Source of the DNA: Escherichia phage Es2
Sequence record: OR515477.1
Reading direction: 5' to 3' (one strand)
Length of the DNA stretch: 64,000 bases
The notes under the pieces were generated by a model. It saw nothing but the letters and a program-made list of their open reading frames with translations. It had not been told where the DNA came from and did no database searches. Position 1 is the stretch's first letter, and each line of letters begins with the position of its first letter. This document shows, piece by piece, positions 4,455-58,443 of this stretch. The position numbers and the translations under genes were made by a program.

Positions 4455-5044
4455 TGAAGGTTAAATTCTGGTCAGACTTGCACTTAGACCACCCTGGAGC
4501 ACTACGTTTCCGTCCGTGGTTTAAGAACATGAAAGAGCACGATGAGTATATTCTAGATACTTTATCCAAGCATATTGGTAAACGAACAAAACTTATTTTG
4601 CTAGGAGATATTGCAGTAGGTCGTGAAGGTCTGGCCAAATTAAAGTCGGTTATCCACAATGTCCCTAATCAACTCATTATGGGTAATCATGATGCGGAGC
4701 GTCAAGGACTGAGTATTAGGGACTTAGCGGAAGTTTATGACGATATTCAAGCTCTAGGCAAACAGACTGGAGGTGGCAAAAAGTTTTGGCTATCTCACTG
4801 CCCTTTGCACCCTAATGAACTTCGTGGCAAACTAAATATTCACGGACATGTACATACTACTTCTTTACGTGATCCACGTTATATTAATGTCTCATTTGAA
4901 ATGAGTAGAACTCCAATTCCACTAGAGGATATTGTGTCTGGTAAGTTTACTAGTTACGATAGAGTGGTTAATTGTACTACCGGCGAGGTATTACAAATAG
5001 GAGAAGACGTAGCTGCTGTATTGCGTGGCGATATAAATGTCTAA
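4451..5044 (+). CDS. metallophosphoesterase-like protein
   Basis: 197 aa; LLGDIAVG, GNHD and GHVH motifs. Confidence 0.5.
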   Translation: MMKVKFWSDLHLDHPGALRFRPWFKNMKEHDEYILDTLSKHIGKRTKLILLGDIAVGREGLAKLKSVIHNVPNQLIMGNHDAERQGLSIRDLAEVYDDIQALGKQTGGGKKFWLSHCPLHPNELRGKLNIHGHVHTTSLRDPRYINVSFEMSRTPIPLEDIVSGKFTSYDRVVNCTTGEVLQIGEDVAAVLRGDINV

Positions 5045-5152
5045 GTATATAGCTAGGGCTATTATTAAACGAATTATACAAGTGATAGCAATACTTATAG
5101 TTATTTGTATTGCCATTGGCACAGGACTAGGCATTTTAATTAAAAGTTTTAT

Positions 5153-5181
5153 TTGCTAAAATGCCTAAATTTCTGTATAAT
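5153..5181 (+). promoter_or_regulatory. sigma70-type early promoter
   Basis: TTGCTA, 17 bp spacer, TATAAT. Confidence 0.55.
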
Positions 5182-5211
5182 TACTTTATAAATTGATGAG
5201 AAGGAATAAAA

Positions 5212-5643
5212 ATGAACAAAGTCGATAAAGCCTTAGTTTTCGCAGCAGCAGATAAGTTTGAACAAGTCAAGGCAACTTTCCGAACCTTGTTCCAGTCTTA
5301 CGTTCAAGATAAGTCTAATCCTATTTCTGAACGCTTAATGGTTTGGGAATGTCATGCTTGCAATGCCCTGCTAATTGCGGATTATCGTAGTGATATAGAT
5401 AAAGATCTCTGTGAAATCCTCATCCCTGAGGAAGCAGAACGTTATCAGCTAATCTCTTTTCAAGATTTGGCAGAGCACATAATCCCTGATGATCTTTGGG
5501 ATAAATACTATGGTGATCCTGAAGATGAGGGGATGACTCCAGAAGCATGTATTGAGTTAATCTGTAAGGATCATCCTGAAATTGCAGAAAAATTTGAAAA
5601 AGTTTTTGCTTCTGAGTTCTCTGGTGTTGTTAACGATTGGTAA
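5212..5643 (+). CDS. hypothetical early protein
   Basis: 143 aa ORF with RBS GAGAAGGAA. Confidence 0.45.
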   Translation: MNKVDKALVFAAADKFEQVKATFRTLFQSYVQDKSNPISERLMVWECHACNALLIADYRSDIDKDLCEILIPEEAERYQLISFQDLAEHIIPDDLWDKYYGDPEDEGMTPEACIELICKDHPEIAEKFEKVFASEFSGVVNDW

Positions 5644-5660
5644 GTAATTAAAAAATTCAG

Positions 5661-5689
5661 TTGCTTTAAGCCTTAAAATTCTGTATAAT
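5661..5689 (+). promoter_or_regulatory. sigma70-type early promoter
   Basis: TTGCTT, 17 bp spacer, TATAAT. Confidence 0.55.
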
Positions 5690-5721
5690 AAGTTCATAAA
5701 TTAATGAGAGAGGAAATTCTA

Positions 5722-5973
5722 ATGGAAAACATGACTAAAAATGAAATGGCTAACGTTCTGGCAATTCTCCTCGACATGCAGGGTTTTGAGGGTCAGCTCA
5801 TGAAGATGTCTATTCCGGCAATGAAAAAGATGTATGATTCTCTGAATAAGAATGCTATGGCATTCAACCTTGCAAAACAGGAAGCACGTTTTGCTAAAGA
5901 GCATCAAGCGACTGCCGAACGTCGTGCAGCATCTTTTGAGCGTGAAGTTAAGCAACTGAAAGGTAAGAAATAA
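5722..5973 (+). CDS. hypothetical early protein
   Basis: Start moved to the ATG at 5722, which has RBS GAGAGGA 7 nt upstream; ORF track begins at 5704. Confidence 0.4.
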   Translation: MENMTKNEMANVLAILLDMQGFEGQLMKMSIPAMKKMYDSLNKNAMAFNLAKQEARFAKEHQATAERRAASFEREVKQLKGKK

Positions 5974-5995
5974 GGACTAAGGGAGTATATAATTA

Positions 5996-6277
5996 ATGTT
6001 GATTGAAATTCTTATTGGGTTACTAGTTCTTACTACCCTAGTAGCGATTGGCGGAGTTATTGGGATTGTGAATGCACGAAAAAGCATGGAAAATATGCTT
6101 ATTACTAATGATGGACTACACCACCGTTTGCTAGAGCAAGAGCAGGATATTGAATTAGCACAAAGACGCTCGGATATTCTTAAGGAAAAATTAAATAATA
6201 TAGAAGCAATAGTTGGGAATAATAAATTACCTGCTAAAGTAATGCGTACACAGATAATCACGGAGATTAAAAAATGA
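5996..6277 (+). CDS. small membrane-anchored coiled-coil protein
   Basis: 93 aa; N-terminal TM then charged helical region. Confidence 0.4.
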   Translation: MLIEILIGLLVLTTLVAIGGVIGIVNARKSMENMLITNDGLHHRLLEQEQDIELAQRRSDILKEKLNNIEAIVGNNKLPAKVMRTQIITEIKK

Positions 6278-6519
6278 TGATGTTTATTCTAGCGTTTTAT
6301 CTAATTGTGGTTGGTGTACTGGTTACTAAGTATCACACATGGACACCAAAGAATGTAGGTAAGGTAGCACTGTTTGTTATCCCAGTTCCACTTATTATCT
6401 TTTCTATGTTACTGGTGATGTTAATTGGTAAAGTAACAAAAACTGATATTAAACGTATTGCTGATGAATTGCAACAGTCTTGTGATATGGTAGAGGATAT
6501 TATTAAAGATGAAGCTTAA
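6274..6519 (+). CDS. small membrane protein
   Basis: 81 aa with two hydrophobic segments; ATGA overlap with upstream gene. Confidence 0.4.
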   Translation: MMMFILAFYLIVVGVLVTKYHTWTPKNVGKVALFVIPVPLIIFSMLLVMLIGKVTKTDIKRIADELQQSCDMVEDIIKDEA

Positions 6520-6835
6520 TTTTAATGAATTAAATACCTTACATGAGATATTACAGTTTGTGAATAATAATATTAGTATTCCAGATGATACTCTAGAAGT
6601 TCTCATGTTAATCGAGAAAAAGGTAGGAATTGAAATTGAGGATTCTTGGAAACCACTTTCTGTATTAACACCACTTAATATAAAAGTGATAGTTAAAAAT
6701 ATTGATACTGGTGAAGAGTGTGAAATGATTCGTAAAGAACTAGCTGATAGTTATTCACCAAAGTCTGTAGTAATGTACCATGATGATACTCCTAAGGTTC
6801 TACAGACAGCTAATTACGTATGGCGTCTACCATGA
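6509..6835 (+). CDS. hypothetical early protein
   Basis: 108 aa ORF. Confidence 0.4.
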   Translation: MKLNFNELNTLHEILQFVNNNISIPDDTLEVLMLIEKKVGIEIEDSWKPLSVLTPLNIKVIVKNIDTGEECEMIRKELADSYSPKSVVMYHDDTPKVLQTANYVWRLP

Positions 6836-6978
6836 TTGATCTAGTACCAGTTACTGCGGGGCTAATAGCATTGCTAGTATTAGCAGTATTCATTATTGTG
6901 GAGCAGGCCAAAGTAATAAGGAGACTTAAAAACAATGATAAAACGTCTTGTTTATCAGGCACCAAAGATTGTAACTGA
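6832..6978 (+). CDS. small membrane peptide (48 aa), not in ORF track
   Basis: ATGA overlap with upstream stop; hydrophobic core AGLIALLVLAVFIIV; overlaps next ORF in another frame. Confidence 0.25.
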   Translation: MIDLVPVTAGLIALLVLAVFIIVEQAKVIRRLKNNDKTSCLSGTKDCN

Positions 6979-7135
6979 GTATTTTGTATTACTGCCTCAG
7001 ATTGTATTTCTAACAGCATTATTTAATATACTTTTTCGACATCTAGGAATAACGGAAAATATCTTCTACACTTCTGAACTACTTCCCTTTATGTACGAAG
7101 GCATCATCGTGGCAATTAACGGAGTTCGTAAATGA
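6935..7135 (+). CDS. small membrane protein
   Basis: 66 aa; strong RBS AAGGAGA 8 nt upstream. Confidence 0.4.
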   Translation: MIKRLVYQAPKIVTEYFVLLPQIVFLTALFNILFRHLGITENIFYTSELLPFMYEGIIVAINGVRK

Positions 7136-7593
7136 CAGCACTACAACAACTACAGAATTACTGGTTTGATAACCAATTTAACGATCTCTTTATCCAGTTG
7201 TTTGTCGAAACGAACGGACGCTTCAACTACCGATTCTTTAATAAGTTTCACGAAACAAAATTCTCCCATACAGAAATTAACGCAGCAATTCAGGACTTAA
7301 CAGGTTCTAAGGTAATTCAGTATCGTGAAGTAGACTTTACACCAGATTGTTTTGGATTTGAATTGTTTAAGAAAGCGTATAAATTTGGCAAGTTTGAGGA
7401 TGCTCGTCAATGGGTTCATGATTTCTGGTATAATACCGATATTGTTCCTAGTCGTGTGCTGATTCTTAACTGGATTGCTAAACAACACCCACCTAAAGCT
7501 CAATCGTCCTTCTTACCAACTGACACAGGAAACCTTTACCATGACAGAAAAGAAAAATCCATTGCTGGAGCAGATGAAGGAATGGGAGAGTAA
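7132..7593 (+). CDS. hypothetical early protein
   Basis: 153 aa ORF. Confidence 0.4.
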   Translation: MTALQQLQNYWFDNQFNDLFIQLFVETNGRFNYRFFNKFHETKFSHTEINAAIQDLTGSKVIQYREVDFTPDCFGFELFKKAYKFGKFEDARQWVHDFWYNTDIVPSRVLILNWIAKQHPPKAQSSFLPTDTGNLYHDRKEKSIAGADEGMGE

Positions 7594-7912
7594 TATTGAA
7601 ACTGGTCTAGTAGACGGAGAAGATATTGTTAACTCTATGCTAGAAGTAACAGTGGATAATATTAACCCTATTTTGGCCGGGGAAACCTCAGATCTTATAG
7701 GACTTTCTAGTACATTCGATTCTTTGGCTAAATTAGCCTTAGATAACGAAGAGATAACCAAAGAAGATCTCGCTACAGCTATGAATATGGCTATTAACGC
7801 CTATATTGGTAAACGTACTGATGAACTCGATAAACAAATCAAAAAGCGTGATACAACGTTAGATCTTATGGAAATGGCCACTATGTTAAGAAGTGGTAAA
7901 CAACTTCATTAA
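7541..7912 (+). CDS. hypothetical early protein (acidic)
   Basis: Start set at an internal ATG (MTEKKNPLL) to limit overlap; the true start is uncertain. Confidence 0.35.
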   Translation: MTEKKNPLLEQMKEWESNIETGLVDGEDIVNSMLEVTVDNINPILAGETSDLIGLSSTFDSLAKLALDNEEITKEDLATAMNMAINAYIGKRTDELDKQIKKRDTTLDLMEMATMLRSGKQLH

Positions 7913-7919
7913 TTTTAGG

Positions 7920-7953
7920 GGCCAGGACTTAATTGTTCTGGCCTTTTGTGTTT
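7920..7953 (+). terminator. rho-independent terminator
   Basis: GGCCAGGAC-ttaatt-GTTCTGGCC followed by TTTTGTGTTT. Confidence 0.55.
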
Positions 7954-7966
7954 CAAGGAACTCCAA

Positions 7967-8170
7967 ATGCAAGTATACGTCCTTACTAGAGACATAAATG
8001 AGTATAATCAGGATGGTGAGTATTTTGTAAAAGTGTTCGCTGAAAAGCCAAGTAAACAACAACTATTAGACGCTGGAGTACCAGAAGACCAGGCTAAGTA
8101 TATACTACAAGATAAAGAATTTACTGGAGATGCTTACGAATGCTTCCATCTTAGTTGTGAGAATATCTAA
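7967..8170 (+). CDS. hypothetical early protein
   Basis: ORF track start at 7946 lies inside the terminator hairpin, so the ATG at 7967 is preferred. Confidence 0.3.
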   Translation: MQVYVLTRDINEYNQDGEYFVKVFAEKPSKQQLLDAGVPEDQAKYILQDKEFTGDAYECFHLSCENI

Positions 8171-8171
8171 T

Positions 8172-8618
8172 ATGAGAGAAAAAGTAAATGAATTATTAAT
8201 CGAGGAAGCGAACAACTTCCCAATAAATAGGTTTATCAAATCGGATGGATCTATTAATAGAACTAAGATTAAGCAGTTACACCCCGACTTTCAACAAGAA
8301 GCGCTAAATCTTATATTTGTCAAGAAAGCTGTTGCAGCTCATGGGGTTTTCTTCGGGTATGAGCGTGTAAATTATAAGACAATGCAACAGCAGGTTGAGA
8401 TATATTGTCCAGACCACAAGGGTTATTACTGGCAAACTGCTAGATCTCATTTAGAAGGGCATGGTTGTCGACTGTGCGCACACAAGGTTGTGCAGCGTAT
8501 CACGGATTATGGAACTTATACCGTACCAGCATGTTATCATAAATTTGTAATTGACGATAACCATATAGTTTGGTATAATAAGTTTTCAAAGTTAAGAATG
8601 GAGATAAATAGTGAGTAG
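8172..8618 (+). CDS. zinc-finger-containing protein
   Basis: C-P-D-H...H-L-E-G-H-G-C-R-L-C-A-H cysteine/histidine cluster; start at 8172 (MREKVNELL), RBS unclear. Confidence 0.4.
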   Translation: MREKVNELLIEEANNFPINRFIKSDGSINRTKIKQLHPDFQQEALNLIFVKKAVAAHGVFFGYERVNYKTMQQQVEIYCPDHKGYYWQTARSHLEGHGCRLCAHKVVQRITDYGTYTVPACYHKFVIDDNHIVWYNKFSKLRMEINSE

Positions 8619-8901
8619 CTACATTGTATGGTCAAATCCATTAGCAGCACTTAGTAATAAATTATTTAAAACAGAATGGGGTAAAAACGAAATAGACTTA
8701 GGTAGTCGCCCAATACCAAATAAGCACCCATTAGTACCCGAGCTATATAGGGTAGTTATAAATGGCACAGAGTATTTGGTCGATAAATTTGACAGAAAAC
8801 GTTTACTAGAGGGTATCTACGATAATTCTATATCAATAAATGAATTAGTGGAACATGCCCAAATATATGATAAAAGCTGGATGTTAATATGGAAATCATA
8901 G
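8611..8901 (+). CDS. hypothetical early protein
   Basis: 96 aa ORF. Confidence 0.4.
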   Translation: MSSYIVWSNPLAALSNKLFKTEWGKNEIDLGSRPIPNKHPLVPELYRVVINGTEYLVDKFDRKRLLEGIYDNSISINELVEHAQIYDKSWMLIWKS

Positions 8902-9122
8902 CAATTATTTTAGTAGTTATGTTATTCATCGTAGTACTTGTATCTTTTGCTATTATGAGCAGAGCTAGAGAACTAGCAGAAGATCTAACAAAATTACGTG
9001 GTGAAGTGGCCGCCCTTAAACTACAGCGTGAGGCTTTAAAGTTGTTTGTAGTTCAGGGTAGCGTAGCTCATACACCAGAAGACTTCATCATATACCTCAA
9101 ACGCTATATGGGGATTAAATAA
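8889..9122 (+). CDS. small membrane-anchored coiled-coil protein
   Basis: 77 aa; N-terminal TM IIAIILVVMLFIVVLV then helical region. Confidence 0.35.
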   Translation: MEIIAIILVVMLFIVVLVSFAIMSRARELAEDLTKLRGEVAALKLQREALKLFVVQGSVAHTPEDFIIYLKRYMGIK

Positions 9123-9307
9123 TGGAAACACTTTTTCTTTTAATGCTCGTAGGTTCGTTAGTAGTTATATTAGCACTCCTATTAATCTGTAATATTCTTA
9201 ATAATAAGAATTTAGGACTAAAGTGTGAGAACCAAATCCTTAATCGTGAACTTGAGCAATATAACCTAGCAGCCCATAAACTATTAGACAAACTGGAGAA
9301 TAAATAA
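9122..9307 (+). CDS. small membrane-anchored coiled-coil protein
   Basis: 61 aa; same architecture as the preceding ORF. Confidence 0.35.
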   Translation: METLFLLMLVGSLVVILALLLICNILNNKNLGLKCENQILNRELEQYNLAAHKLLDKLENK

Positions 9308-9906
9308 TGTTCACACAACAACCTATTCAAGTAGTACCAGACCATGAACTGAACACATGGGATTATAGCTTTAAAGATTTAACTGCTACTGTACAATTCA
9401 AATCTATGAAGCTAACATTTGCACACACTGACCTTAGAGCATGTAAAGATCTTGAAGGTAAGCTAGAAGATGCTCGTAAGATTTTTGGCAAGGCTCGCAT
9501 CCCGGCTGATAACCTGATTAATGCACTGATCGATGCAGGATACAAACTCGTGAAGGCTGAGGTTAACCGTCCTAGTACTCCAGTGACTATTAGAGATCCG
9601 TGGCAATCAGGGCCAATCGCAATGCTAAATAAATCATCGGATTTGCACAATGTTCCATGTGGCGGTACGCTGTCGTCTAATCAATCCTATCGAGTTGGGG
9701 AAGATTATGGGCCTTCTATACAGTTGAAACATACTCAAGAAGCTCTTGAGTCTGACATGAAAAGCGTAGCACCGGGGAACTCTGGAGTTTCTAGGAATTC
9801 TGTCTATACTGTTCATTTAAACAATCCTGGTAATCATGGAAGTTTAGAGGATGCTATTATGGAGGCGTTGGGAGCTGTCATTAATGAAGATAAGAGAGGT
9901 AATTAA
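9307..9906 (+). CDS. hypothetical early protein
   Basis: 199 aa ORF; ATGA overlap with upstream gene. Confidence 0.45.
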   Translation: MFTQQPIQVVPDHELNTWDYSFKDLTATVQFKSMKLTFAHTDLRACKDLEGKLEDARKIFGKARIPADNLINALIDAGYKLVKAEVNRPSTPVTIRDPWQSGPIAMLNKSSDLHNVPCGGTLSSNQSYRVGEDYGPSIQLKHTQEALESDMKSVAPGNSGVSRNSVYTVHLNNPGNHGSLEDAIMEALGAVINEDKRGN

Positions 9907-10253
9907 TGATATTTGGTAAAACAAAAATAGCCCCTGCTGGGGAAAATTTAATTACTCTTAGCCTCTACTATAAGGATGAAAATGTAGAAATAGAAACATT
10001 AGAGTATGTTCTTATAAATACTAATAAGCCTAAAATAGGAGAGTTACTTGGTATAATCTCTAATATCTCTGATAGGGAAGATATTCCAAGTATAACACCA
10101 AAGAATATAGCTCACTTAGCACAACAATTAGGAATCTTGTGGTATAAAGTAGATCTTCCAGCTAAAGAAAGAACCAAAGGAACCTTTGCAGAGATCGCAA
10201 GAAAACCTAAGTCAGAAAAGAAAGAAACAGGGGAGCAAGCGTCTGATATATGA
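9906..10253 (+). CDS. hypothetical early protein
   Basis: 115 aa ORF. Confidence 0.4.
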   Translation: MIFGKTKIAPAGENLITLSLYYKDENVEIETLEYVLINTNKPKIGELLGIISNISDREDIPSITPKNIAHLAQQLGILWYKVDLPAKERTKGTFAEIARKPKSEKKETGEQASDI

Positions 10254-10963
10254 TTAAAGAAGCCGAAAAATTAAAACGTCTCATCCAGCTAGCGCGGGGT
10301 GCTACACAAAAGAGTCTTTCCCAGCTAACTAATGAAGAAAAATATGCAGTAATGTTTTTAGGAGATCATTATCCTGCTAGGTGGGATAAAGGTAAGATCA
10401 AGTATGATCGTGATGCAAAACAAGTTGTTTGGTCAGGCTCATATGTAGAAGTGAATAAAGCATTAAAGGCTTTAGATCCTGAAGCAAAAGGTTTCTCTTC
10501 TAATGCTATTCATATTCTAATTGATGAAGATCTCCCAAGATTTAAGGAAGCATCATTTAAAGAAGCATTAGCTAGTGAAGATCTTATTCCTTTTAAACAC
10601 GGTAAGTATGCACATCTTCCACCACTAGAAAAAGAGAAACCTACTCTAGTTAAAGATGAAGTTTATCGTGGGATTGGCACAATGCTAGCGAGTTTGACTG
10701 TAGCTCTCCATAAAGATCTAGAGTTAACGCCCCTAGAAAACGCTGTGCATTTCATGTGCCATAAGTACGAGGATACATTTAAAGAGCTATGTAAGTCGCT
10801 AGGAATGCCAAGTTACACGATATTAAACTATGCTCCTGAATATACTAGAGCAGCTCGTGGAACTATGGATTACGATGATACAGGATCCACTGCTTCCTAT
10901 TTAGCAACTTATATCTACTTCGCATCCTTAGGTATCAAACTCAAATCCAAGAAGGAGGAATAA
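10250..10963 (+). CDS. hypothetical early protein
   Basis: 237 aa ORF, last gene before the repeat region. Confidence 0.45.
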   Translation: MIKEAEKLKRLIQLARGATQKSLSQLTNEEKYAVMFLGDHYPARWDKGKIKYDRDAKQVVWSGSYVEVNKALKALDPEAKGFSSNAIHILIDEDLPRFKEASFKEALASEDLIPFKHGKYAHLPPLEKEKPTLVKDEVYRGIGTMLASLTVALHKDLELTPLENAVHFMCHKYEDTFKELCKSLGMPSYTILNYAPEYTRAARGTMDYDDTGSTASYLATYIYFASLGIKLKSKKEE

Positions 10964-11269: not shown

Positions 11270-11560
11270 TTTCTTCTAGACTCCTAAGTTTCTAGGAATA
11301 GTTGAGCACTAACTCTAGAGTTTACATTAAACTTTAAATCTGTTTCTCTAGTCAACTCAGGCGGTTTTCATATTCCTAGAAACTCTAGCAATAGGCGGTT
11401 AATACAGGGCGGTTTTAGGGAGGGCGGTTATTTCTAGAAGACATTTTTTGAAAACACATTTCTAGAAATTACTGTCGTATTTGCACACTGCATTTCTAGA
11501 AATTTATGGTCGGATTTGCACAAACGCCTAAGTTTTTAGGAACATATAATCTCTTGAAAA
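11270..11560. repeat. TTCTAGAA palindrome cluster and CCTAAGTTTYTAGGA repeats
   Basis: At least 4 copies of ATTTCTAGAA(A) and 4 copies of the ctRAGTTTYTAGRA element. Confidence 0.6.
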
Positions 11561-12080
11561 TGGCAGCATTATTTCGGGCCGAAGGCCCGTGATTGCCTGA
11601 GTTTTTAGAGCCACAAGAATTTTCACTTGTCAAGCTATTTTGCCCCATTTAGCAAATAAAATTTTACTTTATCTCCTCTAATCTCAAATTAACCCAAATC
11701 TTCTCAACTCTTCCCCAAAATACCCGCAAATCAGGTGCTCCGCACCAAACATGCGCCTCTCCCACAGTTCCCCCAAAATTTCTCTCGCTCTCTCAACTTC
11801 TCCCCAAACATACACAATCACACACCCTCCAATCGAAGCCACAAAAATCTTGTCGGATTCGCACATCTTAATCCTAGAAAAACCGTGTCGGATTTGCACA
11901 TACCCCACAGGATTCGAACGCAGTTCGAGATTGCTGGAGTTTTTAGGAAAATTCATTGTCGGATTCGCACACTATAAAAATTTTTCGGGTCGGATTTGCA
12001 CACTACCAAAAATTGTCGGATTCGCACATACACGCCCGCACGTAACACCCGTGGAGCAATGTCGGATTTGCACAAAAGCG
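11470..12080. repeat. dispersed 14-mer repeat GTCGGATT(T/C)GCACA, about 8 copies
   Basis: Copies near 11476, 11508, 11852, 11886, 11958, 11988, 12013 and 12058 with irregular spacing. Confidence 0.65.
11690..11830. repeat. C/A-rich low-complexity tract with CCCCAAAA-type repeats
   Basis: Strong strand compositional bias; repeated tCCCCAAAa units. Confidence 0.5.
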
Positions 12081-12099
12081 CAGGGCAATTGCCCTGCGC

Positions 12100-12310
12100 T
12101 AAATGAGAATAAAAATAAGAATCATTCTCATTTAGAAAGCGGAATGAGAATGATAATAATTCGCATTTAGAAAGCGAAATGAGAATCAATCTCATTTAAG
12201 AACGGAAACGAAAATTATTCAGGAAGTGAAACGATTCTCATTTAGAAAGTGGAATGATTCTCATTTAGAAAGTGGAATGCAAATGATAATGATTCGCATT
12301 TAAGAATGGA
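12100..12310. repeat. tandem array of ATTCTCATTTAGAAAG(Y)GGAATGA units with embedded inverted repeats
   Basis: About 5 direct repeat units plus AAATGAGAAT/ATTCTCATTT palindromic cores. Confidence 0.65.
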
Positions 12311-12333
12311 AGTGAGAAACACTGTTATTTAAG

Positions 12334-12415
12334 TTATCCACAGACTTATCAACAGCACGATTTGACTTGACAAAATTCTAGCCATTTTGAGGCGTTATCA
12401 ACAGACTTATCAACA
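12334..12415. promoter_or_regulatory. cluster of DnaA-box-like sites
   Basis: TTATCCACA (12334-12342) matches the DnaA box consensus TTATNCACA; TTATCAACA at 12346, 12395 and 12407. Confidence 0.45.
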
Positions 12416-12423
12416 GCTTATCC

Positions 12424-12443
12424 TACTGTATAAATATACAGTA
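12424..12443. promoter_or_regulatory. LexA (SOS) box-like palindrome
   Basis: TACTGTATAAATATACAGTA, CTGT-N8-ACAG, 18 of 20 match to TACTGTATATATATACAGTA. Confidence 0.45.
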
Positions 12444-12636
12444 TTCCTATGCAGTGAATAATTCTAATATACAGCTAAAACGCTCTCAAACGCATTCTAA
12501 CGCGTTTAATTTTGGTGGGGATACTAAAACACGGGCAAAATTGGAGGAGGCTTAGAAATTAGTTAGCTCGCTAACGATCACACAAGGCGACACGTAACAT
12601 CCTAACCATTAGCAGGCTAACCATCGCGGGCGCGGT

Positions 12637-12659
12637 CAAATGAGAATGATTCTCATTTG
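12637..12659. repeat. perfect 22 bp palindrome
   Basis: CAAATGAGAATGATTCTCATTTG, same core as the 12.1-12.3 kb array. Confidence 0.55.
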
Positions 12660-12809
12660 AGAATTGGGGGCACTTCCTGATAGTTGCGCCCCGTGATTAT
12701 TACAGTAGTGGGCAACCTTTACGCTTTGCCCATTCCCGCCACTCATCTTGATGTCTAGACTTGCGACGGCGTACTAAAAACCATTTATACCAGTGATTAA
12801 ACCATCGTT

Positions 12810-13013
12810 TCATAAATCCTCCTCCGGTAGTCGGTGCGTGATTTTTTCCTCCTCTCCGTAGGAATCCACTAAATGCTGATAATAACCATCGTGATCATAA
12901 ATCACTTTATCATATTCGCCACGCTCGACCGCTTGTCGGTTTTCCGGCGTATCTGGCACGTAAAAAACATCAACCATTGTACTGATTTTGGTTACAACAA
13001 TTTTATTGCTCAT
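12810..13013 (-). CDS. hypothetical small acidic protein (67 aa)
   Basis: RBS GGAG upstream of ATG; inside higher-GC cassette. Confidence 0.4.
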   Translation of the reverse strand: MSNKIVVTKISTMVDVFYVPDTPENRQAVERGEYDKVIYDHDGYYQHLVDSYGEEEKITHRLPEEDL

Positions 13014-13038
13014 AATAACGCTCCGTTATTATATAATC

Positions 13039-13383
13039 TCATTGTGCCACCTTTCGAAACGCTGTTTCAATACTTTCCGCAGTTGACTGAATATACGCGC
13101 CTTTCATGATCAGGCGCTCAGTGCATACCTTACGGAAGATATTAATAAAATCATCTTCATTTTCTGCAATTAACGCTTCACCCATAACCTGAACGTCACA
13201 AGATGCAAAGGTCAAAAATTGAAACGCTAGTTCACGGGCAACGACCTCATTGATTTTATAATGCGCCTTGCCCTCATAAATATTAATAACGCCCTTATAT
13301 GTTGGGGAAAGCTGATTTAAATAATTTGCTAATAATGCTGGGCGGCAATTAGCAATAAAACGATTGCCTTCATAAATAACCAT
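13039..13383 (-). CDS. hypothetical protein (114 aa)
   Basis: Start set at the ATG with RBS GGGAGG 6 nt upstream (MVIYEGNRF); ORF track start is 13398. Confidence 0.4.
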   Translation of the reverse strand: MVIYEGNRFIANCRPALLANYLNQLSPTYKGVINIYEGKAHYKINEVVARELAFQFLTFASCDVQVMGEALIAENEDDFINIFRKVCTERLIMKGAYIQSTAESIETAFRKVAQ

Positions 13384-13510
13384 TTGACAGCCTCCCAATT
13401 AGATAGCCAGATAATAACATAAAGATCCCCAATGAAAGGGGGTCATTTTTAAATAGGGTGGCGGTAAAACCGCCAGCCATTGCAAGGATGATAACAATAA
13501 CGCTTTTCAT
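13367..13510 (-). CDS. small two-segment hydrophobic peptide (47 aa), not in ORF track
   Basis: MKSVIVIILAMAGGFTATLF...LSLGIFMLLSGYLIG; ATGA overlap with upstream stop. Confidence 0.3.
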
Positions 13511-13719
13511 AGTACCCCACGAAACGCAGCGTAAAAGGTGGCAAAATGTTTAACTGTTTCAGCTATCACGTTGCCGCGCTTGTCAAATTTCTTTTCTGTA
13601 ACACGAAAGGCATTCTTATTACGTGCTACATATTCAATTTTACAATCTTCCCGCTCGAACGTGTTAACATCCACCAGCTTAAAGCCTTTCGAACGTGCAA
13701 GAGAAACATTGCGGATCAT
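13507..13719 (-). CDS. hypothetical basic protein (70 aa)
   Basis: RBS AGGAGAA upstream of ATG. Confidence 0.4.
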   Translation of the reverse strand: MIRNVSLARSKGFKLVDVNTFEREDCKIEYVARNKNAFRVTEKKFDKRGNVIAETVKHFATFYAAFRGVL

Positions 13720-13721
13720 TT

Positions 13722-13871
13722 TTATTCTCCTTTACTAGTCATGCAGCCCAGCAGATAAGAAAATGCAGCGATACCCGCGCCAATAATAACCGCGTGAACA
13801 CCGAAAGCTATTGCAAAAAGGGATAAAATAGCGCCCAAGATACCTGCTAGAATAGCTCGAAAAATAACCAT
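13722..13871 (-). CDS. small two-segment hydrophobic peptide (49 aa), not in ORF track
   Basis: MVIFRAILAGILGAILSLFAIAFGVHAVIIGAGIAAFSYLLG; RBS AGGAGA 7 nt upstream. Confidence 0.3.
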   Translation of the reverse strand: MVIFRAILAGILGAILSLFAIAFGVHAVIIGAGIAAFSYLLGCMTSKGE

Positions 13872-13917
13872 TTTCATTCTCCTAGTTTGCGGGGCGAAAG
13901 TAACGCCCCGTTATTAC

Positions 13918-14158
13918 TTACATTAAAACAATTTTTGCCGCTTGTTTTTTAGTACAGTGTTCCGCTTTCAGGGTATCCAGCAAAAAGCCGGCCGTTTGCT
14001 GATCGATTTTATCGGCGTTGTATAGTTCTTGGATGGTGTTATAAGTTTTAGCAATGCCGAACTCCTGCACCATTTCATGAATGATGGCGCGATTAGATAC
14101 CCAGCCTTGCGCGGTGAACAGATGACTAGCAGAAGAATAAGCAACCATTTTAAACCTC
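13918..14158 (-). CDS. hypothetical protein (80 aa)
   Basis: Start set at the ATG with RBS GGAGG upstream (MVAYSSASHLF); ORF track start is 14181. Confidence 0.4.
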
Positions 14159-14266
14159 CAAATTTTTGGGAAAATTTTCAACCGTCCTCAAACGGTGTAA
14201 AGGCATTATAACAAAAAAGGTCGCCATAAAAGGCGACCTTTACAAAACTTTACATTAGATTATTTA

Positions 14267-15277
14267 TTACTCGTTTTCGGTGTTAGTGGTAAAAGTAGAA
14301 ATATCGATACCTTTTACCATTTCATCAATCATTTCAGCGATGTTAAAACTTTGCACCATTTCCAACATTGCCGCTTCCATAGCTGCCCCTGCTACCGCTT
14401 TCGCTTTCTGGTTGCTTGGGGCATACTGGTCAACCGCTACGCTCAGCAGGTTGGCAATTACTACTCGACCGATAGGCGTATCAATATAACCTTTAATCAT
14501 GAACGGTGCTTTTTTAGCCGCTACTTTCGTAATTTGAGTCAGTGCAATTTTACCCGCTTCCAGTTTTGCAGCGTTTACAACGGCGGATTTATTAGCGGCA
14601 ACGATGTTAGCAATCTTGGTCATGGTATTTTTTCCTTTATTTTCAGTGATTTGAGTATTAACGCTTTGAGTGTTAGAATTTACAGCATGGTTTTCTACGC
14701 TGTCAATAATCTGATCTTCATCTTTCCAGAAAGAAAAACCAGCGCTTTCTATATCCCCATCATAAATATACGGGTATAGCTCCCGTGGTAACAAAAAATT
14801 ACCGTCGCCATCAAAAGCCATTATACCGGTATATTGAGATCCGTCGTTATCCGGCTTATACCATCCAGCGGGTAAATACTTCCAGATAACATCTAAAAAT
14901 CCCTCAATGCTAGAAAGTCCATTTATCAGATCAAGCCCAATAAGCTCAAAACCATTTATATTAAATGATTGACGGCCTGAATTGCTATGATACGCAACAA
15001 TAGTATTGCCCTGCGCAACAATAAAATCGGTATCCGGCCCCGCTCCCCTGCCCGTAAAGATATGGCAATCCCGATTATGTAAAACTAGCGTTGCCCCTTG
15101 CTTATATAAGGGTAGAAAACTATCCATATCATAGGCGTCATATTCATCAAAAAAGTTTTGATGAATAGTTTCAACCTTGTTAATAAAATGTTTAATGCTG
15201 GTTGACTTGCTACCGTCCAGCAGGTTACGCAATGCACCTTTTAAGACGGTTGCGTTATCTGGTTTATAAAGCCTCAT
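14267..15277 (-). CDS. hypothetical protein (336 aa), first gene of the inverted-repeat-flanked cassette
   Basis: Strong RBS GAGGAGG 7 nt upstream; Gly/Asp-rich N-terminal half and Ala/Lys-rich helical C-terminal half; no recognised catalytic motif. Confidence 0.5.
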   Translation of the reverse strand: MRLYKPDNATVLKGALRNLLDGSKSTSIKHFINKVETIHQNFFDEYDAYDMDSFLPLYKQGATLVLHNRDCHIFTGRGAGPDTDFIVAQGNTIVAYHSNSGRQSFNINGFELIGLDLINGLSSIEGFLDVIWKYLPAGWYKPDNDGSQYTGIMAFDGDGNFLLPRELYPYIYDGDIESAGFSFWKDEDQIIDSVENHAVNSNTQSVNTQITENKGKNTMTKIANIVAANKSAVVNAAKLEAGKIALTQITKVAAKKAPFMIKGYIDTPIGRVVIANLLSVAVDQYAPSNQKAKAVAGAAMEAAMLEMVQSFNIAEMIDEMVKGIDISTFTTNTENE

Positions 15278-15541
15278 TTGTTCGGCCTCCTCGTTAATCG
15301 GTGAGTGAATGATAAAGGTATTTTCTTTCTAGGGGCAAATATTATTTTACCTTTTTATTTTCTTTGCCTAACTCCTAGTTTTATGCTAATCGCGCAGCGG
15401 TACAGTAAAGAGCAAAACACGGCGAAGCCACCAGGGCGACGGGTGAAGGCTTTACTTTAATATTACCCCACTGCATTTAGCTCGTTAGAAAGCGATTTAG
15501 GCCGCTTAAAATTGATTGCAGTTGTTAACACTACCTTTTTA

Positions 15542-15561
15542 CCCTGTATATTTATACAGTA
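15542..15561. promoter_or_regulatory. LexA (SOS) box-like palindrome
   Basis: CTGTATATTTATACAG, CTGT-N8-ACAG. Confidence 0.45.
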
Positions 15562-15569
15562 GGATAACC

Positions 15570-15651
15570 TGTGGATAAGTCTGTGTAAAAGTCCTTATAT
15601 CGCCGCCTATCATGTCAAGTTATTTTACAAAATGTATAAGTCTGTGGATAA
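15570..15651. promoter_or_regulatory. DnaA-box-like sites
   Basis: TGTGGATAA at 15570-15578 and 15643-15651, reverse complement of TTATCCACA. Confidence 0.45.
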
Positions 15652-15841
15652 CTTAAATAATAGTGTTTCTCACTAACTAATTTATGCAGTTATTATATCG
15701 TAAAATATAGTTAGTTGGCTAATAGGATTTTAAAGTGATTATGAGTCCGCTAATTAAACCTGAAAAACTCATTAGCTAGTCTGCTAATCATTTTGATATA
15801 ATATAATAGAGATTAAATTAATAACATAAGGAAACAATTAG

Positions 15842-16416: not shown

Positions 16417-16585
16417 AACTATTTTTCAATTTTGCGGTTGTTAAATATTTGTTAAACCGAAAATAAGCCGCCTAAAACGCCCCAGAACGCGATGAAAGTT
16501 TTAGTCATGCCATTGCATTGCCTACCCTCGTTTATCGCTACCACGAGCTTTTTAGATTTTGTCAAGTAGGGGAAAGCAAATATAA

Positions 16586-17656: not shown

Positions 17657-18064
17657 ATGACTAACGCAAAAACCGCAAAATTCGCATGGAATGAAGAAAA
17701 CACCCAAAAAGCTGTTACCATGTACCAGCAGTTAATCAACGAAAACGGTTTAGATTTCGCAAATAGTGACGGGCTGAAAGAGATTGCAAAAGCAGTAGGC
17801 GCGGCTTCTCCCGTATCCGTTCGCTCAAAATTGACCAGTGCAAAAGCCTACCAGAAAAGCGATAAGCCGCGTAAAGTTGGCGGCGGCAGTTCTGTACGCA
17901 AAGCGCATTATGTGCGTGTTATTGCTAAACATGCCATTGATTCCGGCATTATCAAAGACGCTGACGATCTGGCATCACTGGAAAGTGCAAAACTTGAAAC
18001 GCTGGACGCGGTAGCGCAATTGCTAGGCGTTGCCGATGAAGTGAAACAAGCCGCAGGCGAATAA
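17657..18064 (+). CDS. pre-early-type hypothetical protein (135 aa)
   Basis: AATCCCTTAAAT leader plus GGAG SD. Confidence 0.45.
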   Translation: MTNAKTAKFAWNEENTQKAVTMYQQLINENGLDFANSDGLKEIAKAVGAASPVSVRSKLTSAKAYQKSDKPRKVGGGSSVRKAHYVRVIAKHAIDSGIIKDADDLASLESAKLETLDAVAQLLGVADEVKQAAGE

Positions 18065-18351: not shown

Positions 18352-18447
18352 TGTTGCAAATTATAACGCCTATTATTCAAGGCGTTATATTTGGCAATAT
18401 TTGCCAATAACAAACGTTTTTTAATCCCTTTAATGGAGTTTATTACT

Positions 18448-20112
18448 ATGATTATTTCCGCAGAAAAACAAACCGTTATCCTGAAAATGGCCGCTGACTT
18501 TAATTTCTATGGTAAACGTCTGCGCGCCACTAAACTGGAGGTCTGCGACGATATATCAAAAGCGGTCTACGATACAACAAAACACTCGACCGCCATTTGT
18601 GATTGGCTGGAAGCAAATAAACCAGTTAAACCAAAAGCTGCAAAAGTAGCAAAAGCTATTAAAAACGATGAGCGCCCCGAAGCGGCTGGGATCGTTTCTA
18701 GCACGGTTGAACAGTGGGAAGTAAAACAAGGCAAACGCTTTATTATTACGTCGATTCAGAATAATACTTTCCCGCATAAAAACTTTTTGGCCTCGCTTGA
18801 ACAGTATGCTAAATACATCGGCGCTGATTTGCTTGTTTCTAAGTATATTTATAATAAAAACGGCTTCCAAAATGGTGAAGGTGCGGATGGAATCAAATAT
18901 GATTCCGCGTTCGATAAGTATATTTGCAGCAAAAACGTGTTTTTAAACAACCGCCGTTTTGCTTTCATGGCTGAAATTAACGTTTTGCCTACCGCAGATT
19001 ATCCGCTTTCTGGATTCGCTGAAACTGCAACGGCGCTTAATCTTGAAGGTCTGGCAATTGGTCACGCTAAAATCACCGCCGAAAGCGTGCCAGCTTTAAA
19101 AGGTGAAGTAGTACGCCGCATGTACTCAACCGGAACGGCAACGCTAAAAAACTACATTCAGCAGAAAGCAGGGCAAAAAGCGGAAGCGCTGCATAACTTC
19201 GGTGCGCTGATTGTTGAGTTCGACGAAGACGGTGAGTTTTTTGTACGCCAGCTTGAAACAATGGACGAAAGCGGGGTGTTTTATGATCTGAATGTTTGCG
19301 CTACTCCCGCAGGATGCTATGAAACATCGGGGCATGTTTTAGGTTTACAATATGGCGACATCCACGCAGAAAAATTAGATGATGATTGTGCCGTTGCGTC
19401 ATGGGCTGGCGAAAATAGCTTGCTTGATATTCTTAAACCAAAATATCAGTTTATCCATGACGTTCACGATTTTACATCTCGCAATCATCATAATCGTGCG
19501 TCCGGTGTATTCCTAGCGAAACAGTACGCCGCCGGACGTGATAAAGTTCTGGATGATCTTATCGATACGGGGCGCGTGCTGGAATCAATGGAACGTGATT
19601 TTAGTCAAACGATCATTGTTGAATCGAATCACGATTTGGCGCTATCCCGTTGGCTGGATGATCGTAATGCTAACATTAAAGACGATCCAGCAAACGCCGA
19701 ACTATATCACCGCCTGAATGCTGCAATTTACGCGGCAATCGGTGAACACGACGAAACGTTTAACGTGTTAGATTATGCGCTGCGCAAGGTTGCAGGTTGC
19801 GAGTTTAACGCCATTTTCCTAACAACTGACCAATCATTTAAAATTGCAGGCATCGAGTGTGGCGTACACGGTCACAACGGCATTAACGGAAGCCGTGGCA
19901 ATCCTAAACAGTTTAAGAAATTGGGCAAACTGAACACGGGGCATACGCATACGGCAAGCATTTACGGCGGGGTATACACCGCTGGCGTGGCTGGTAGTCT
20001 GGACATGGGTTACAACGTTGGCGCGTCAAGCTGGACGCAAACGCATTTAATTACCTATGCAAACGGTCAGCGCACTTTGATTGACTTTAAAAACGGTAAA
20101 TTCTTTGCGTAA
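18448..20112 (+). CDS. A1: A1-like pre-early protein with calcineurin-like metallophosphatase motifs
   Basis: 554 aa from the ATG at 18448 (T5 A1 about 556 aa, from memory); GDIH, GHNG and GHTH motifs; AATCCCTTTAAT leader. Confidence 0.55.
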   Translation: MIISAEKQTVILKMAADFNFYGKRLRATKLEVCDDISKAVYDTTKHSTAICDWLEANKPVKPKAAKVAKAIKNDERPEAAGIVSSTVEQWEVKQGKRFIITSIQNNTFPHKNFLASLEQYAKYIGADLLVSKYIYNKNGFQNGEGADGIKYDSAFDKYICSKNVFLNNRRFAFMAEINVLPTADYPLSGFAETATALNLEGLAIGHAKITAESVPALKGEVVRRMYSTGTATLKNYIQQKAGQKAEALHNFGALIVEFDEDGEFFVRQLETMDESGVFYDLNVCATPAGCYETSGHVLGLQYGDIHAEKLDDDCAVASWAGENSLLDILKPKYQFIHDVHDFTSRNHHNRASGVFLAKQYAAGRDKVLDDLIDTGRVLESMERDFSQTIIVESNHDLALSRWLDDRNANIKDDPANAELYHRLNAAIYAAIGEHDETFNVLDYALRKVAGCEFNAIFLTTDQSFKIAGIECGVHGHNGINGSRGNPKQFKKLGKLNTGHTHTASIYGGVYTAGVAGSLDMGYNVGASSWTQTHLITYANGQRTLIDFKNGKFFA

Positions 20113-20936: not shown

Positions 20937-21671
20937 ATGAGTCAAGTTAAAACGAATATTACCCGCTCTTTCCCGCATATTTCCCGCGTTATGATTTGGG
21001 ATCTGGACGGCACTATCATTAATTCTTTCCATCGTGTAGCGCCTTGTTTTGATAGCGAGGGCAATTTAGATTTAAATAAATATAAAAATGAAGCCTGCAA
21101 ACATCATTTAATAATGCAGGATTCATTATTGCCATTAGTTGAATATATGCGCCAGTGTATGAATGACGCTAACACGTTAAACATTATTTGCACCGCTCGA
21201 CTGATGAGCAAGTCAGATTATTATTTCTTGCGTAAACAAGGATTGCGGGGGCGTGGAAATAGCAATATCCGCGTGTTTTCCCGCGATACCCTGCACAAAT
21301 ACTTTAAAGCTGATAAAGTTAGCGAGATATACCACAGTAAGGACGCAGTTTATAAATCTTATTATTTTGAATTATTTAAACAATTATATCCGAACGCTGA
21401 TTTTACAATGATTGATGATCATAAAGGCGTGTTAGCGGCGGCGGCATCATACGGATTTAAAACGCTGGACGCACAAGCCGTTAACGATATTCTATCAATC
21501 GGTGTTACATTGATTGGTGAAACCTTTATTGATGAATCGCTCGACGATGATAATGATTATCAGTTCCTAGCAGACCGCCTGCAATTATGTTGGGAAGGTA
21601 TGACCGAGGAAGAACGCGCAGAATATAGTTGCAGTCCTCAACAGTACATCGAGAAATTAAAAGTTGCATAA
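20937..21671 (+). CDS. dmp: 5'-deoxyribonucleotidase (HAD superfamily), Dmp-like
   Basis: 244 aa, same length as T5 Dmp (from memory); WDLDGTI HAD motif I; AATCCCTTAAAT leader. Confidence 0.65.
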   Translation: MSQVKTNITRSFPHISRVMIWDLDGTIINSFHRVAPCFDSEGNLDLNKYKNEACKHHLIMQDSLLPLVEYMRQCMNDANTLNIICTARLMSKSDYYFLRKQGLRGRGNSNIRVFSRDTLHKYFKADKVSEIYHSKDAVYKSYYFELFKQLYPNADFTMIDDHKGVLAAAASYGFKTLDAQAVNDILSIGVTLIGETFIDESLDDDNDYQFLADRLQLCWEGMTEEERAEYSCSPQQYIEKLKVA

Positions 21672-57949: not shown

Positions 57950-58443
57950 AATTTTATTCTAAGTCTAGGAATTTCAGGCTCCTCTTGATGGACTTGATAA
58001 ATAACAGGGCTATTATTTACCAGAATATAGCTTATATAAGCTGGAACATAAGATAATACAAATGGATATGGAACTTTAGCCACATAGCATTGGTATTTTC
58101 CATTATAGATTCTAGCTGAATGCAAAACTTTAGAGGTGACAACATCATAGAACGTAGTTTTCTTCCAGTTAATAAGATTTCCATCAGAATCTATAAATTG
58201 GCTACGCTTTGACCCAACTAATTGAGACAACATTGATATTCTACCTCTAATAGGATAGAGCTTATATGGTAATTCTTTCCGTTTCTCAAATAGAATAAGC
58301 CTACGTTGAGAAAAAGTGCCAGGCAACTTCCTGTTATCTAGCACATATTTATTATATCTTGTTGTAATTACGGAATAATCACCTTCTTGCTCAATTGATA
58401 CGAACGCCCGTAAAGCATATACGGGCAATTTGAAATCAAGCAC
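57946..58443 (-). CDS. hypothetical protein (165 aa)
   Basis: ORF between polymerase and helicase genes. Confidence 0.4.
   Translation of the reverse strand: MLDFKLPVYALRAFVSIEQEGDYSVITTRYNKYVLDNRKLPGTFSQRRLILFEKRKELPYKLYPIRGRISMLSQLVGSKRSQFIDSDGNLINWKKTTFYDVVTSKVLHSARIYNGKYQCYVAKVPYPFVLSYVPAYISYILVNNSPVIYQVHQEEPEIPRLRIKL

Follow-up and report, generated by a model that had tools for sequence, protein, structure and literature searches.

The pre-early region of Escherichia phage Es2 carries two copies of an inverted repeat in which an array of DnaA boxes is capped, on the side facing the enclosed operon, by a near-consensus LexA-like operator, and this pairing of motifs persists across the Demerecviridae. 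The DNA analyzed was a stretch of 64,000 nucleotides (sequence record OR515477.1), referred to here as the window; the two copies are designated arm L (12311..12443) and arm R (15542..15674). It is near certain that the arms are the known inverted repeats of phage T5 beside its injection-stop (iss) region, which have already been described and for which an injection-stop function has been proposed in the literature. New here are the near-consensus LexA site in each repeat and its family-wide conservation, as well as an interior that is inverted rather than replaced in two lineages and the recurrence of composite DnaA-LexA sites in unrelated phages. We read the arms as two copies of a conserved cis-acting Demerecviridae element that would serve as landing pads for host DnaA and LexA and would mark the boundary of first-step transfer; we give this reading about an even chance. 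Binding and function are both inferred, and the function of the element is much less certain than its identity.

The arms are reverse complements of each other, 133 bp each and identical at 100 of 133 positions, and block by block they agree at 38/39 (outer), 20/43 (central) and 42/51 (inner) positions; inverted arms with a diverged centre had been recognized correctly in a preliminary description of this DNA. Arm L lies nearer the iss region and corresponds by orthology to T5 IRD'-spacer-IRC'; its outer block (12311-12349) is followed by a centre peculiar to this arm and by an inner block that closes with the LexA box. Arm R, on the A2 side, is orthologous to T5 IRC-spacer-IRD and lies between the divergent promoters of hegG and of the enclosed operon, which begins with a DUF7566 gene. 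The region from 11000 to 17000 matches 539 phage records, nearly all T5-like, and aligns in reverse to T5 4791-10608; arm L aligns gap-free to positions 9332-9462 of T5 (AY587007), with 92.8% identity over 181 bp, and arm R likewise aligns to the IRC/IRD repeats (~131 bp, T5 6022-6152 and 9332-9462). Position agrees as well, with one copy at the inner edge of the iss non-coding region and the other upstream of the T5.011 operon toward A2. Record AY587007 (Wang 2005) annotates the same sequences as inverted repeats C/C' and D/D', direct repeat B and palindrome D, and Davison discusses them under the names IRCspacerIRD and IRD'spacerIRC' (bioRxiv 10.1101/866236); the suggestion that the arms bound an undescribed module is thus withdrawn. 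Davison further proposed that both copies belong to the injection stop signal and tether the DNA to membrane-bound DnaA (bioRxiv 10.1101/866236), a proposal that papers from 2023 and 2026 repeat as experimentally unaddressed. Arm sequence occurs in 535 phage records, two or four times in each and at a fixed locus, with zero matches in the E. coli genomes or plasmids searched; by these searches the arms are confined to T5-like phages and always occupy the same locus.

Both arms carry DnaA boxes (TTWTNCACA) in several copies, in one orientation and closely phased. Perfect TTATCCACA boxes, expected in each arm from the preliminary description, are located at 12334-12342 (+), 15570-15578 (-) and 15643-15651 (-). 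In arm L, an outer pair (12334..12354, +; TTATCCACA-gac-TTATCAACA) has 12-nt phasing and is paired as Davison describes, and an inner DnaA-type pair (12395..12415, +; TTATCAACA-gac-TTATCAACA) is kept in all Demerecviridae lineages examined; the variant TTATCAACA boxes begin at 12346, 12395 and 12407, and a third, degenerate box (TTATCCTAC) follows the inner pair and runs into the LexA box. The boxes of arm R (15570..15651, -) are TTATCCACA, TTTTACACA (15582-15590) and TTATCCACA, the fourth box being missing as in T5. The totals of four boxes in arm L and three in arm R, with one orientation and pairs 3 bp apart at each arm end, are those of T5; Davison counted eight boxes in such pairs in 25 T5-like phages and 7 in T5 itself, and traces the knowledge of DnaA boxes in these repeats to 1987 (Heusterspreute 1987, cited in bioRxiv 10.1101/866236). 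Over the whole window the number of DnaA boxes is no higher than chance would give (8 against 7.9 expected), and four of these eight fall inside the 266 bp of the arms, as do six of ten matches to TTATNNACAG. The centre of arm R (15591-15642) occurs in two variants among T5-type phages: TTATACATTTTGTAAAAT, found in the window and in T5, goes with seven DnaA boxes in total, and TTATCCACAGCACAAAAT, found in most other T5-type phages (L016, L008, L034 and others), supplies the eighth.

Same-oriented boxes phased like those of oriC, together with AT-rich repeats that adjoin the module both in T5 and in the ~45-kb contigs described below, might suggest a replication origin that depends on DnaA and is modulated by LexA, or a DnaA-titrating site in the manner of oriC or datA. 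We consider this very improbable: the mapped origins of T5 are close to the middle of its genome and its replication genes enter only with the second-step DNA (Davison, bioRxiv 10.1101/866236), no initiator gene is found nearby among the open reading frames (ORFs) of the window, and four to eight boxes would be too few to titrate DnaA appreciably.

At the inner edge of each arm stands a LexA-like operator, TACTGTATAAATATACAGTA in arm L (12424..12443; 'palindrome D' of T5) and CCCTGTATATTTATACAGTA in arm R (15542..15561). Both have the CTGT-N8-ACAG 16-mer within the TACTG(TA)5CAGTA 20-mer of an SOS box, as had been noted at the outset; the matches to the 20-nt consensus, given then as 18 in each arm, are 19/20 in arm L and 17/20 in arm R. 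Two LexA-like sites were found in the window versus 0.01 expected in shuffles. Against a position weight matrix derived from a set of 24 E. coli operators, arm L scored 26.3 bits, above all 24 operators (12.6-24.1), and arm R scored 22.9 bits; the next-best site in the window scored 17.5 bits. This third site (TTCTGGATAAGTATACAGTT, 59834-59853) lies within an 855-aa ORF (58436-61003, -) and is probably a chance match. LexA would, we infer, bind at both palindromes. No paper linking LexA to the T5 pre-early region was found in full-text searches or in Davison's preprint, a scope that does not include the Davison 2015 review.

The comparison of arms among close relatives drew on 31 distinct arm pairs (62 arms) from 40 IMG/VR loci and two T5 records, together with the window. 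Across phages, either arm is conserved at 90-96%, with a centre of its own. The arm L LexA box is kept in all 31 pairs, the CTG/CAG half-sites are intact in 58 of 62 arms, and every genome has at least one intact box. The two central bases of the LexA box (within 12432-12435 and 15550-15553) read AA or its mirror image TT throughout the 62 arms, and neither AT nor TA occurs; each state is seen in either arm across phages, as though the centre of the palindrome flips as a unit. Identity between the two arms is the same within a genome (0.834) as between genomes (0.833; permutation p=0.38), and there is thus no sign that one arm homogenizes the other, i.e., neither concerted evolution nor a gene-conversion signal. 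Single-strand folding of the arms is unremarkable, with z-scores of -1.2 to -1.9 and only the LexA palindrome folding, and an intrinsic single-strand or cruciform structure was therefore rejected; an RNA element was rejected as well, with zero Rfam matches above noise. Because the operon promoter lies inward of arm R, the two arms are not within one transcript. As judged from these sequences, selection on the arms acts on the motifs and not on pairing.

Conservation extends to seven further lineages, represented by Klebsiella phage Roth50, Pectobacterium phage My1, Proteus phage M4H10_20, Aeromonas phage AhSzq-1 and Vibrio phages 234P3, JSF10 and Cody, in which A1 identity to the A1 of the window falls from 73% to ~30%. 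All seven keep the iss-proximal module, with a DnaA box, ~50 nt, two to three phased DnaA-type boxes and YACTGTAT-N4-ATACAGKR, and thus also the arm L LexA box; the rest of the arm cannot be aligned and the motifs survive. Within CTGTAT-N4-ATACAG, the LexA-critical half-sites alone are fixed, while the four central bases vary and are not always self-complementary, a pattern that fits a LexA operator and not a hairpin. The LexA box is always inward of the DnaA boxes, facing the operon, in the lineages compared, and in every lineage the iss-proximal arm sits between the last pre-early gene and a long non-coding region. All hosts of these lineages are Gammaproteobacteria and share one LexA motif. 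Tracking of the host motif into Alphaproteobacteria through A1-carrying phages was not applicable, as Rhizobium and Citromicrobium phages have A1 among replication genes and lack a pre-early or iss-like region. The second arm is reduced in some lineages: JSF10 has one arm, what remains of the second is the LexA box alone in the Proteus phage and the DnaA boxes alone in Cody, and Davison reports likewise for 'Type 4' phages (bioRxiv 10.1101/866236). Across this set the arm L copy is universal and arm R appears auxiliary, being dispensable in some lineages.

These patterns also bear on the idea that the arms are boundary sequences for homologous recombination, by which co-infecting T5-like phages swap the accessory operon, with the DnaA and LexA motifs being incidental. 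The idea draws on the contrast between arms conserved at 90-96% and an interior that varies in content and, over the 31 arm pairs, in length from 1.5 to 4.0 kb; Davison has pointed out the same contrast between conserved repeats and variable ORFs (bioRxiv 10.1101/866236). Recombination homology would not explain why motifs alone survive in distant lineages, however, and the motif matches are far above chance and the same motif pair occurs in unrelated phages; we therefore see a poor chance for this explanation.

In the landing-pad reading, which we prefer, each arm would offer same-oriented DnaA boxes with a phase of ~12 nt, capped inward by a candidate high-affinity LexA operator. DnaA and LexA, which are abundant, are present in every cell and have motifs conserved across all these hosts, would load as soon as the arms enter. 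Arm L lies at the last few hundred bp of the first-step-transfer DNA, where the pre-early operon ends, and the complex formed there would most likely be a protein-loaded boundary. Such a complex could anchor or mark the end of the transferred DNA, could block RNA polymerase that leaves the operon toward DNA still in the virion or keep polymerase from pulling that DNA in, and could keep the DNA end tethered to the membrane, in line with Davison's proposal for DnaA; arm R, the inverted duplicate, would play the equivalent role on the far side of the operon. Transcription of the operon does run into arm L in T5-type phages, toward the un-injected DNA, and the LexA box is encountered first. The first-step stop of T5 happens without phage protein synthesis, which leaves DNA structure, virion proteins and host proteins already present as the only possible agents.

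This last point also weighs against the suggestion that the arms instead bind phage proteins, with A2, together with the nuclease-like A1, recognizing the palindrome or the repeats to restart transfer or to cut the DNA for second-step transfer, a scheme similar to the cleavage model of Davison. A1 and A2 are the sole pre-early genes known to be necessary for second-step transfer and A2 binds DNA (T5 annotation; Davison, bioRxiv 10.1101/866236). Moreover, A2 homologs accompany the module in all Demerecviridae lineages, and a predicted A2 structure (pLDDT 84), which is all-helical, has a small N-terminal helical bundle with a weak, non-significant resemblance to helix-turn-helix domains. A2 homologs, however, have diverged to 35-43% identity across lineages while the LexA-type site stays at the consensus; composites also occur in ~45-kb contigs in which neither A1, A2 nor dmp was found in the 11-15 kb examined. 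The A2 model has no significant structural match, with LexA at rank 50 (probability 0.30), and A2 as a LexA mimic was rejected, with no PDB sequence match and no significant fold match. We regard action through phage proteins as rather unlikely.

Several observations weigh against the landing-pad reading itself. CAG is changed to CAA in arm R in 4 of 31 genomes. The LexA boxes overlap no conserved promoter, the annotated T5 promoters being ~90 and ~170 bp away, so that the boxes do not overlap or adjoin a promoter to be repressed as SOS boxes do and classical SOS repression is not the mechanism. Phage ESCO30, a T5-like phage with both LexA boxes, is propagated on DH5alpha; this host is recA1 and does not support LexA cleavage, and SOS-triggered removal of LexA thus cannot be required. 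A protein on DNA already inside the cell could not obviously halt a pressure-driven ejection, which would make a direct 'plug' physically awkward; in T5-type phages there is no known transcription into arm R, and a roadblock therefore explains arm L only. Finally, the scoring of the candidate LexA sites depends on the set of operators from which the matrix was built. A candidate promoter overlapped by the arm R LexA box (15525-15552, + strand, a 10/12 match with the box as its -10 element) was discarded: T5 does not conserve the -35 flank, and nothing equivalent is present in arm L. Of the various roles initially imagined for this locus, that of a unit governed by the host factors DnaA and LexA is the best supported, with conserved motifs and an earlier proposal for DnaA though not for LexA; gating by SOS-induced LexA cleavage, which had been part of it, is unlikely to be essential given growth on DH5alpha.

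The motif pair also occurs elsewhere. A scan of IMG/VR with the pattern TTATCCACA-N10-40-CTGTAT-N4-ATACAG returned 81 stretches, mostly T5-like, with several groups of uncultivated phage contigs that are not. One group consists of the ~45-kb contigs (L083, L102, L105, L125 and L128), which carry the composite along with tail-fibre genes and ICP2-like CobT genes. Their module has TTATCCACAGGTTATCCACAG (or TTATCCACAGSTTATTAACA) leading directly into a LexA box, CTGTATATCCATACAG, in a 1.1-kb AT-rich non-coding region, and is preceded by GAGAATCATTCTCATTTAG, of which 17 nt are identical to a T5 DRC repeat, or by a ATTATCATTATC-type sequence. A second group (L077, L079, L082, L096 and L115) has two DnaA boxes on either side of a LexA box, in an intergenic position beside terminase, portal and endolysin genes. 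Marine Demerecviridae-like contigs retain AAATGATAATGATTCGCATTT together with DnaA and LexA boxes. Further non-T5-like contigs (L053; L086, L097 and L126) have compact composites, some with several LexA-like boxes, located in long non-coding regions. Seven hits (L062, L073, L087, L090, L094, L114 and L119) were false positives, in which 'TTATCCACA' is the reverse of the GTGGATAA start-codon region of a LexA-regulated gene, and the composite in L120 looks like a chance match. In bacterial genomes (596 Gb), the tight composite occurs 6 times versus ~3.5 expected by arithmetic; this chance-level frequency argues that the composite is not a borrowed host promoter.

Palindromes that resemble Fur boxes accompany some of these modules. 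The DRC or palE-I type palindromes AAATGAGAATCATTCTCATTT and AAATGATAATGATTCGCATTT (12111-12306 and 12638-12663) match Fur boxes at 14-15 of 19 positions, and TGAGAATGATTCTCA at 12641 has the 7-1-7 Fur-box layout. Fur-like matches (14-16 of 19) are present in T5-type phages, My1 and Proteus phages, and near-identical copies are present, over L043, L044, L123, L116 and L125, in marine Demerecviridae-like contigs and beside the modules of the unrelated 45-kb contigs; the surroundings of the arm in Roth50, AhSzq-1 and the three cultured Vibrio phages yielded none, and Davison's preprint mentions Fur nowhere. A perfect Fur-type 7-1-7 palindrome (TGATAATGATTATCA, 21548-21562) lies inside the dmp coding sequence (D-D-N-D-Y) and is most likely a coding coincidence. 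A Fur-box reading of the DRC palindromes is a lead only. It is possible, if doubtful, that a DnaA array capped by a LexA operator, perhaps with a Fur-like AAATGAGAATCATTCTCATTT-type palindrome added, is a general cis-element by which virulent phages recruit abundant pre-existing host proteins onto the first-entering or early DNA.

Between the arms lies the pre-early operon (12810..15277, -), transcribed toward arm L, with seven ORFs that have phage-family matches, in agreement with the seven to eight minus-strand genes counted at first. Family matches identify a DUF7566/T5.011-like ORF (14267-15277, -) and a T5.017-like ORF (12810-13013, -); between them are five small ORFs, including one (13507-13719, -) whose family is named as an endonuclease nicking Ung-generated abasic sites. 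The operon promoter region, assigned by homology as the T5 P4 equivalent (15283..15370, -), lies inward of the arms, ~170 bp from the arm R LexA box, and includes promoter-like sites at 15370-15341 and 15338-15309. The interior had been presented as a higher-GC cassette (~45-50%), which the composition contradicts: GC content is 40.9% inside versus 38.7% for the window, 10.7% of equal-sized windows are at least as GC-rich, and the maximum for any interior ORF is 41.8%. In content, these genes make up an accessory pre-early operon of an ordinary, rapidly changing kind.

A 133-bp inverted repeat bounding a gene segment, with an outer block matching at 38/39, naturally raises the question of an actively invertible or mobile cassette that switches orientation in populations or moves, and both properties had been suggested for this segment. 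All 31 arm pairs keep both arms in the same orientation relative to A2. The comparison of T5-like genomes for presence or inversion of the segment that the preliminary description called for gave a single orientation in close relatives, with interior genes colinear and on the same strand in 28 of 28, and the opposite orientation in distant lineages: in My1 (Pectobacterium) and Klebsiella phages (Roth50, L040/L042), the operon is on the opposite strand between the same arms. Its transcriptional order is kept there, with DUF7566 (36-53% aa identity), a weak T5.015-like segment and a T5.017-like gene; the operon of the Proteus phage is in T5 orientation. According to Davison, the My1/Klebsiella-type interior shares no DNA homology and its transcription runs from the other strand (bioRxiv 10.1101/866236), while the protein matches indicate an inverted operon and not a replaced one. 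By its gene order, the operon has flipped at least once in evolution, an outcome that rare recombination between the arms would yield exactly. Both arms of My1 and Roth50 resemble T5-type arm R variants (0.67-0.77 versus 0.56-0.63), which is ambiguous for placing the breakpoints. Invertibility thus holds on an evolutionary scale, in the My1 and Klebsiella lineages, and not as switching among close relatives, where one orientation and no concerted evolution are seen.

As to mobility, no recombinase, invertase or transposase was identified by family matches among the interior ORFs, as had been stated beforehand, and the only candidate enzyme adjacent is an HNH homing endonuclease just outside. 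The flanks, aagaatgga and aactaattt, differ from each other and show no target-site duplication. Inverted repeats are thus present as in a transposon or a miniature inverted-repeat transposable element, while a transposase, a duplication and a variable insertion site are not, and with the locus fixed in 535 phage records and absent from E. coli genomes and plasmids, we no longer describe the segment as mobile. Although the flipped operon and the variable interior length (1.5-4.0 kb) are compatible with an active cassette, the lack of an invertase or transposase inside or adjacent, the fixed orientation and gene order in 28 close relatives, the lack of gene conversion between the arms, and the restriction of the arms to this locus and to T5-like phages leave such a cassette with hardly any probability.

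The arms are embedded in a syntenic order of early genes, non-coding repeats, arm L, the minus-strand operon, arm R, hegG, A2 (17657-18064), A1 (18391-20112) and dmp (20937-21671); read by its genes and repeats, the window is a passage from early genes through the iss region to the pre-early terminal-repeat region. The end of dmp (21671) is the end of the pre-early region, and minus-strand small ORFs and a 585-aa ORF follow directly. From ORF layout alone, the sequence past dmp (~21700) looks like the other end of the unique region, which suggests a permuted start and an assembly with one collapsed terminal repeat. Outside arm L, the iss non-coding region spans approximately 11700..12310, with coordinates transferred by alignment offset from the T5 annotation and repeat families D1-D5; it has DRD repeats (TGTCGGATTTGCACA) at approximately 11465-12074 and DRC palindromes (AATGAGAATCATTCTCATTT type) at approximately 12111-12306, both from the T5 annotation, and, by homology to T5, a major nick position at ~12100. 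The sequence ATTGCCCTGCGC is present twice, at 12088-12099, the place homologous to the T5 major nick at 7.9%, and at 15005-15016 within the DUF7566 gene. The DRD repeats are seven to nine copies of TGTCGGATT(T/C)GCACA in 11465-12074; their ATTTGCACA core fits the DnaA-box consensus at 8/9 positions, and the iss region may therefore contain many more weak DnaA sites than the usual count of eight.

Two further small motifs border the arms. At the outer edge of each arm (12311-12323 and 15662-15674) stands a small palindrome, AGTGAGAAACACT, which Roth50, arm R of My1 and the Proteus phage (GATAGTGAGAAACACTATC) also keep. At 25-30 nt inward from each LexA box, T5-type phages, Roth50, My1, JSF10 and Cody carry a CTAAAACGCTCT / CTAGAACGCTCTAG motif; in the window it is found at 12475-12503, 15487-15512 (-) and 16472-16490 and is a member of the T5 IRB/IRB' repeat family. 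Window-wide, this motif is not enriched (25 found versus 24 expected), yet it clusters at these sites.

The stop of T5 injection at 8% of the genome, and its restart, have been a question since the 1960s and are still treated as such in papers from 2023 and 2026. If the DnaA array capped by a LexA operator is a general element of virulent phages, host LexA and DnaA would, in T5, help to set or stabilize this 60-year-old first-step-transfer boundary. The repeats alone add nothing new; the useful addition is a consensus LexA site fixed beside DnaA boxes family-wide, and the same motif pair in unrelated phages suggests a principle wider than T5. Two corrections also follow, as the segment is not a GC-distinct foreign cassette and the My1/Klebsiella interior is inverted, not replaced. 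The LexA site, the inverted interior and the recurrence of the composite are leads for experiments, not demonstrated functions.

Among known systems, the closest are the T5 IRC/IRD repeats, with the same position, neighbours, DnaA pairing, centre length and palindrome D; no structural difference separates them from the arms, arm L being ~93% identical in sequence, and the departure from the literature on these repeats is that palindrome D is not called a LexA operator in the accessible texts. Invertible segments such as Mu G, P1 C and Salmonella hin likewise have inverted repeats bounding a gene segment whose orientation differs between lineages; here, by contrast, there is no invertase and no sign of ongoing switching, and the promoter flips with the genes. 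The T7-type stepwise entry offers a functional analogy, as there too entry halts after a leading segment and the remainder depends on transcription or newly made proteins, whereas the T7 pause is set by ejected virion proteins and not by a known DNA site, with no DnaA or LexA sites implicated. With oriC, datA and DARS the arms share consensus TTATCCACA boxes accompanied by weaker boxes in one orientation with 11-12-nt phasing, while the array of the arms is LexA-capped and is located in DNA that enters before any replication gene. Finally, the LexA boxes resemble the LexA operators (SOS boxes) of Gammaproteobacteria, temperate phages and colicin plasmids in CTGT-N8-ACAG, in an AT-rich centre and in matches of up to 19/20, and differ from them in belonging to a virulent phage, in overlapping no promoter, in being fused to a DnaA array and in not requiring SOS induction.

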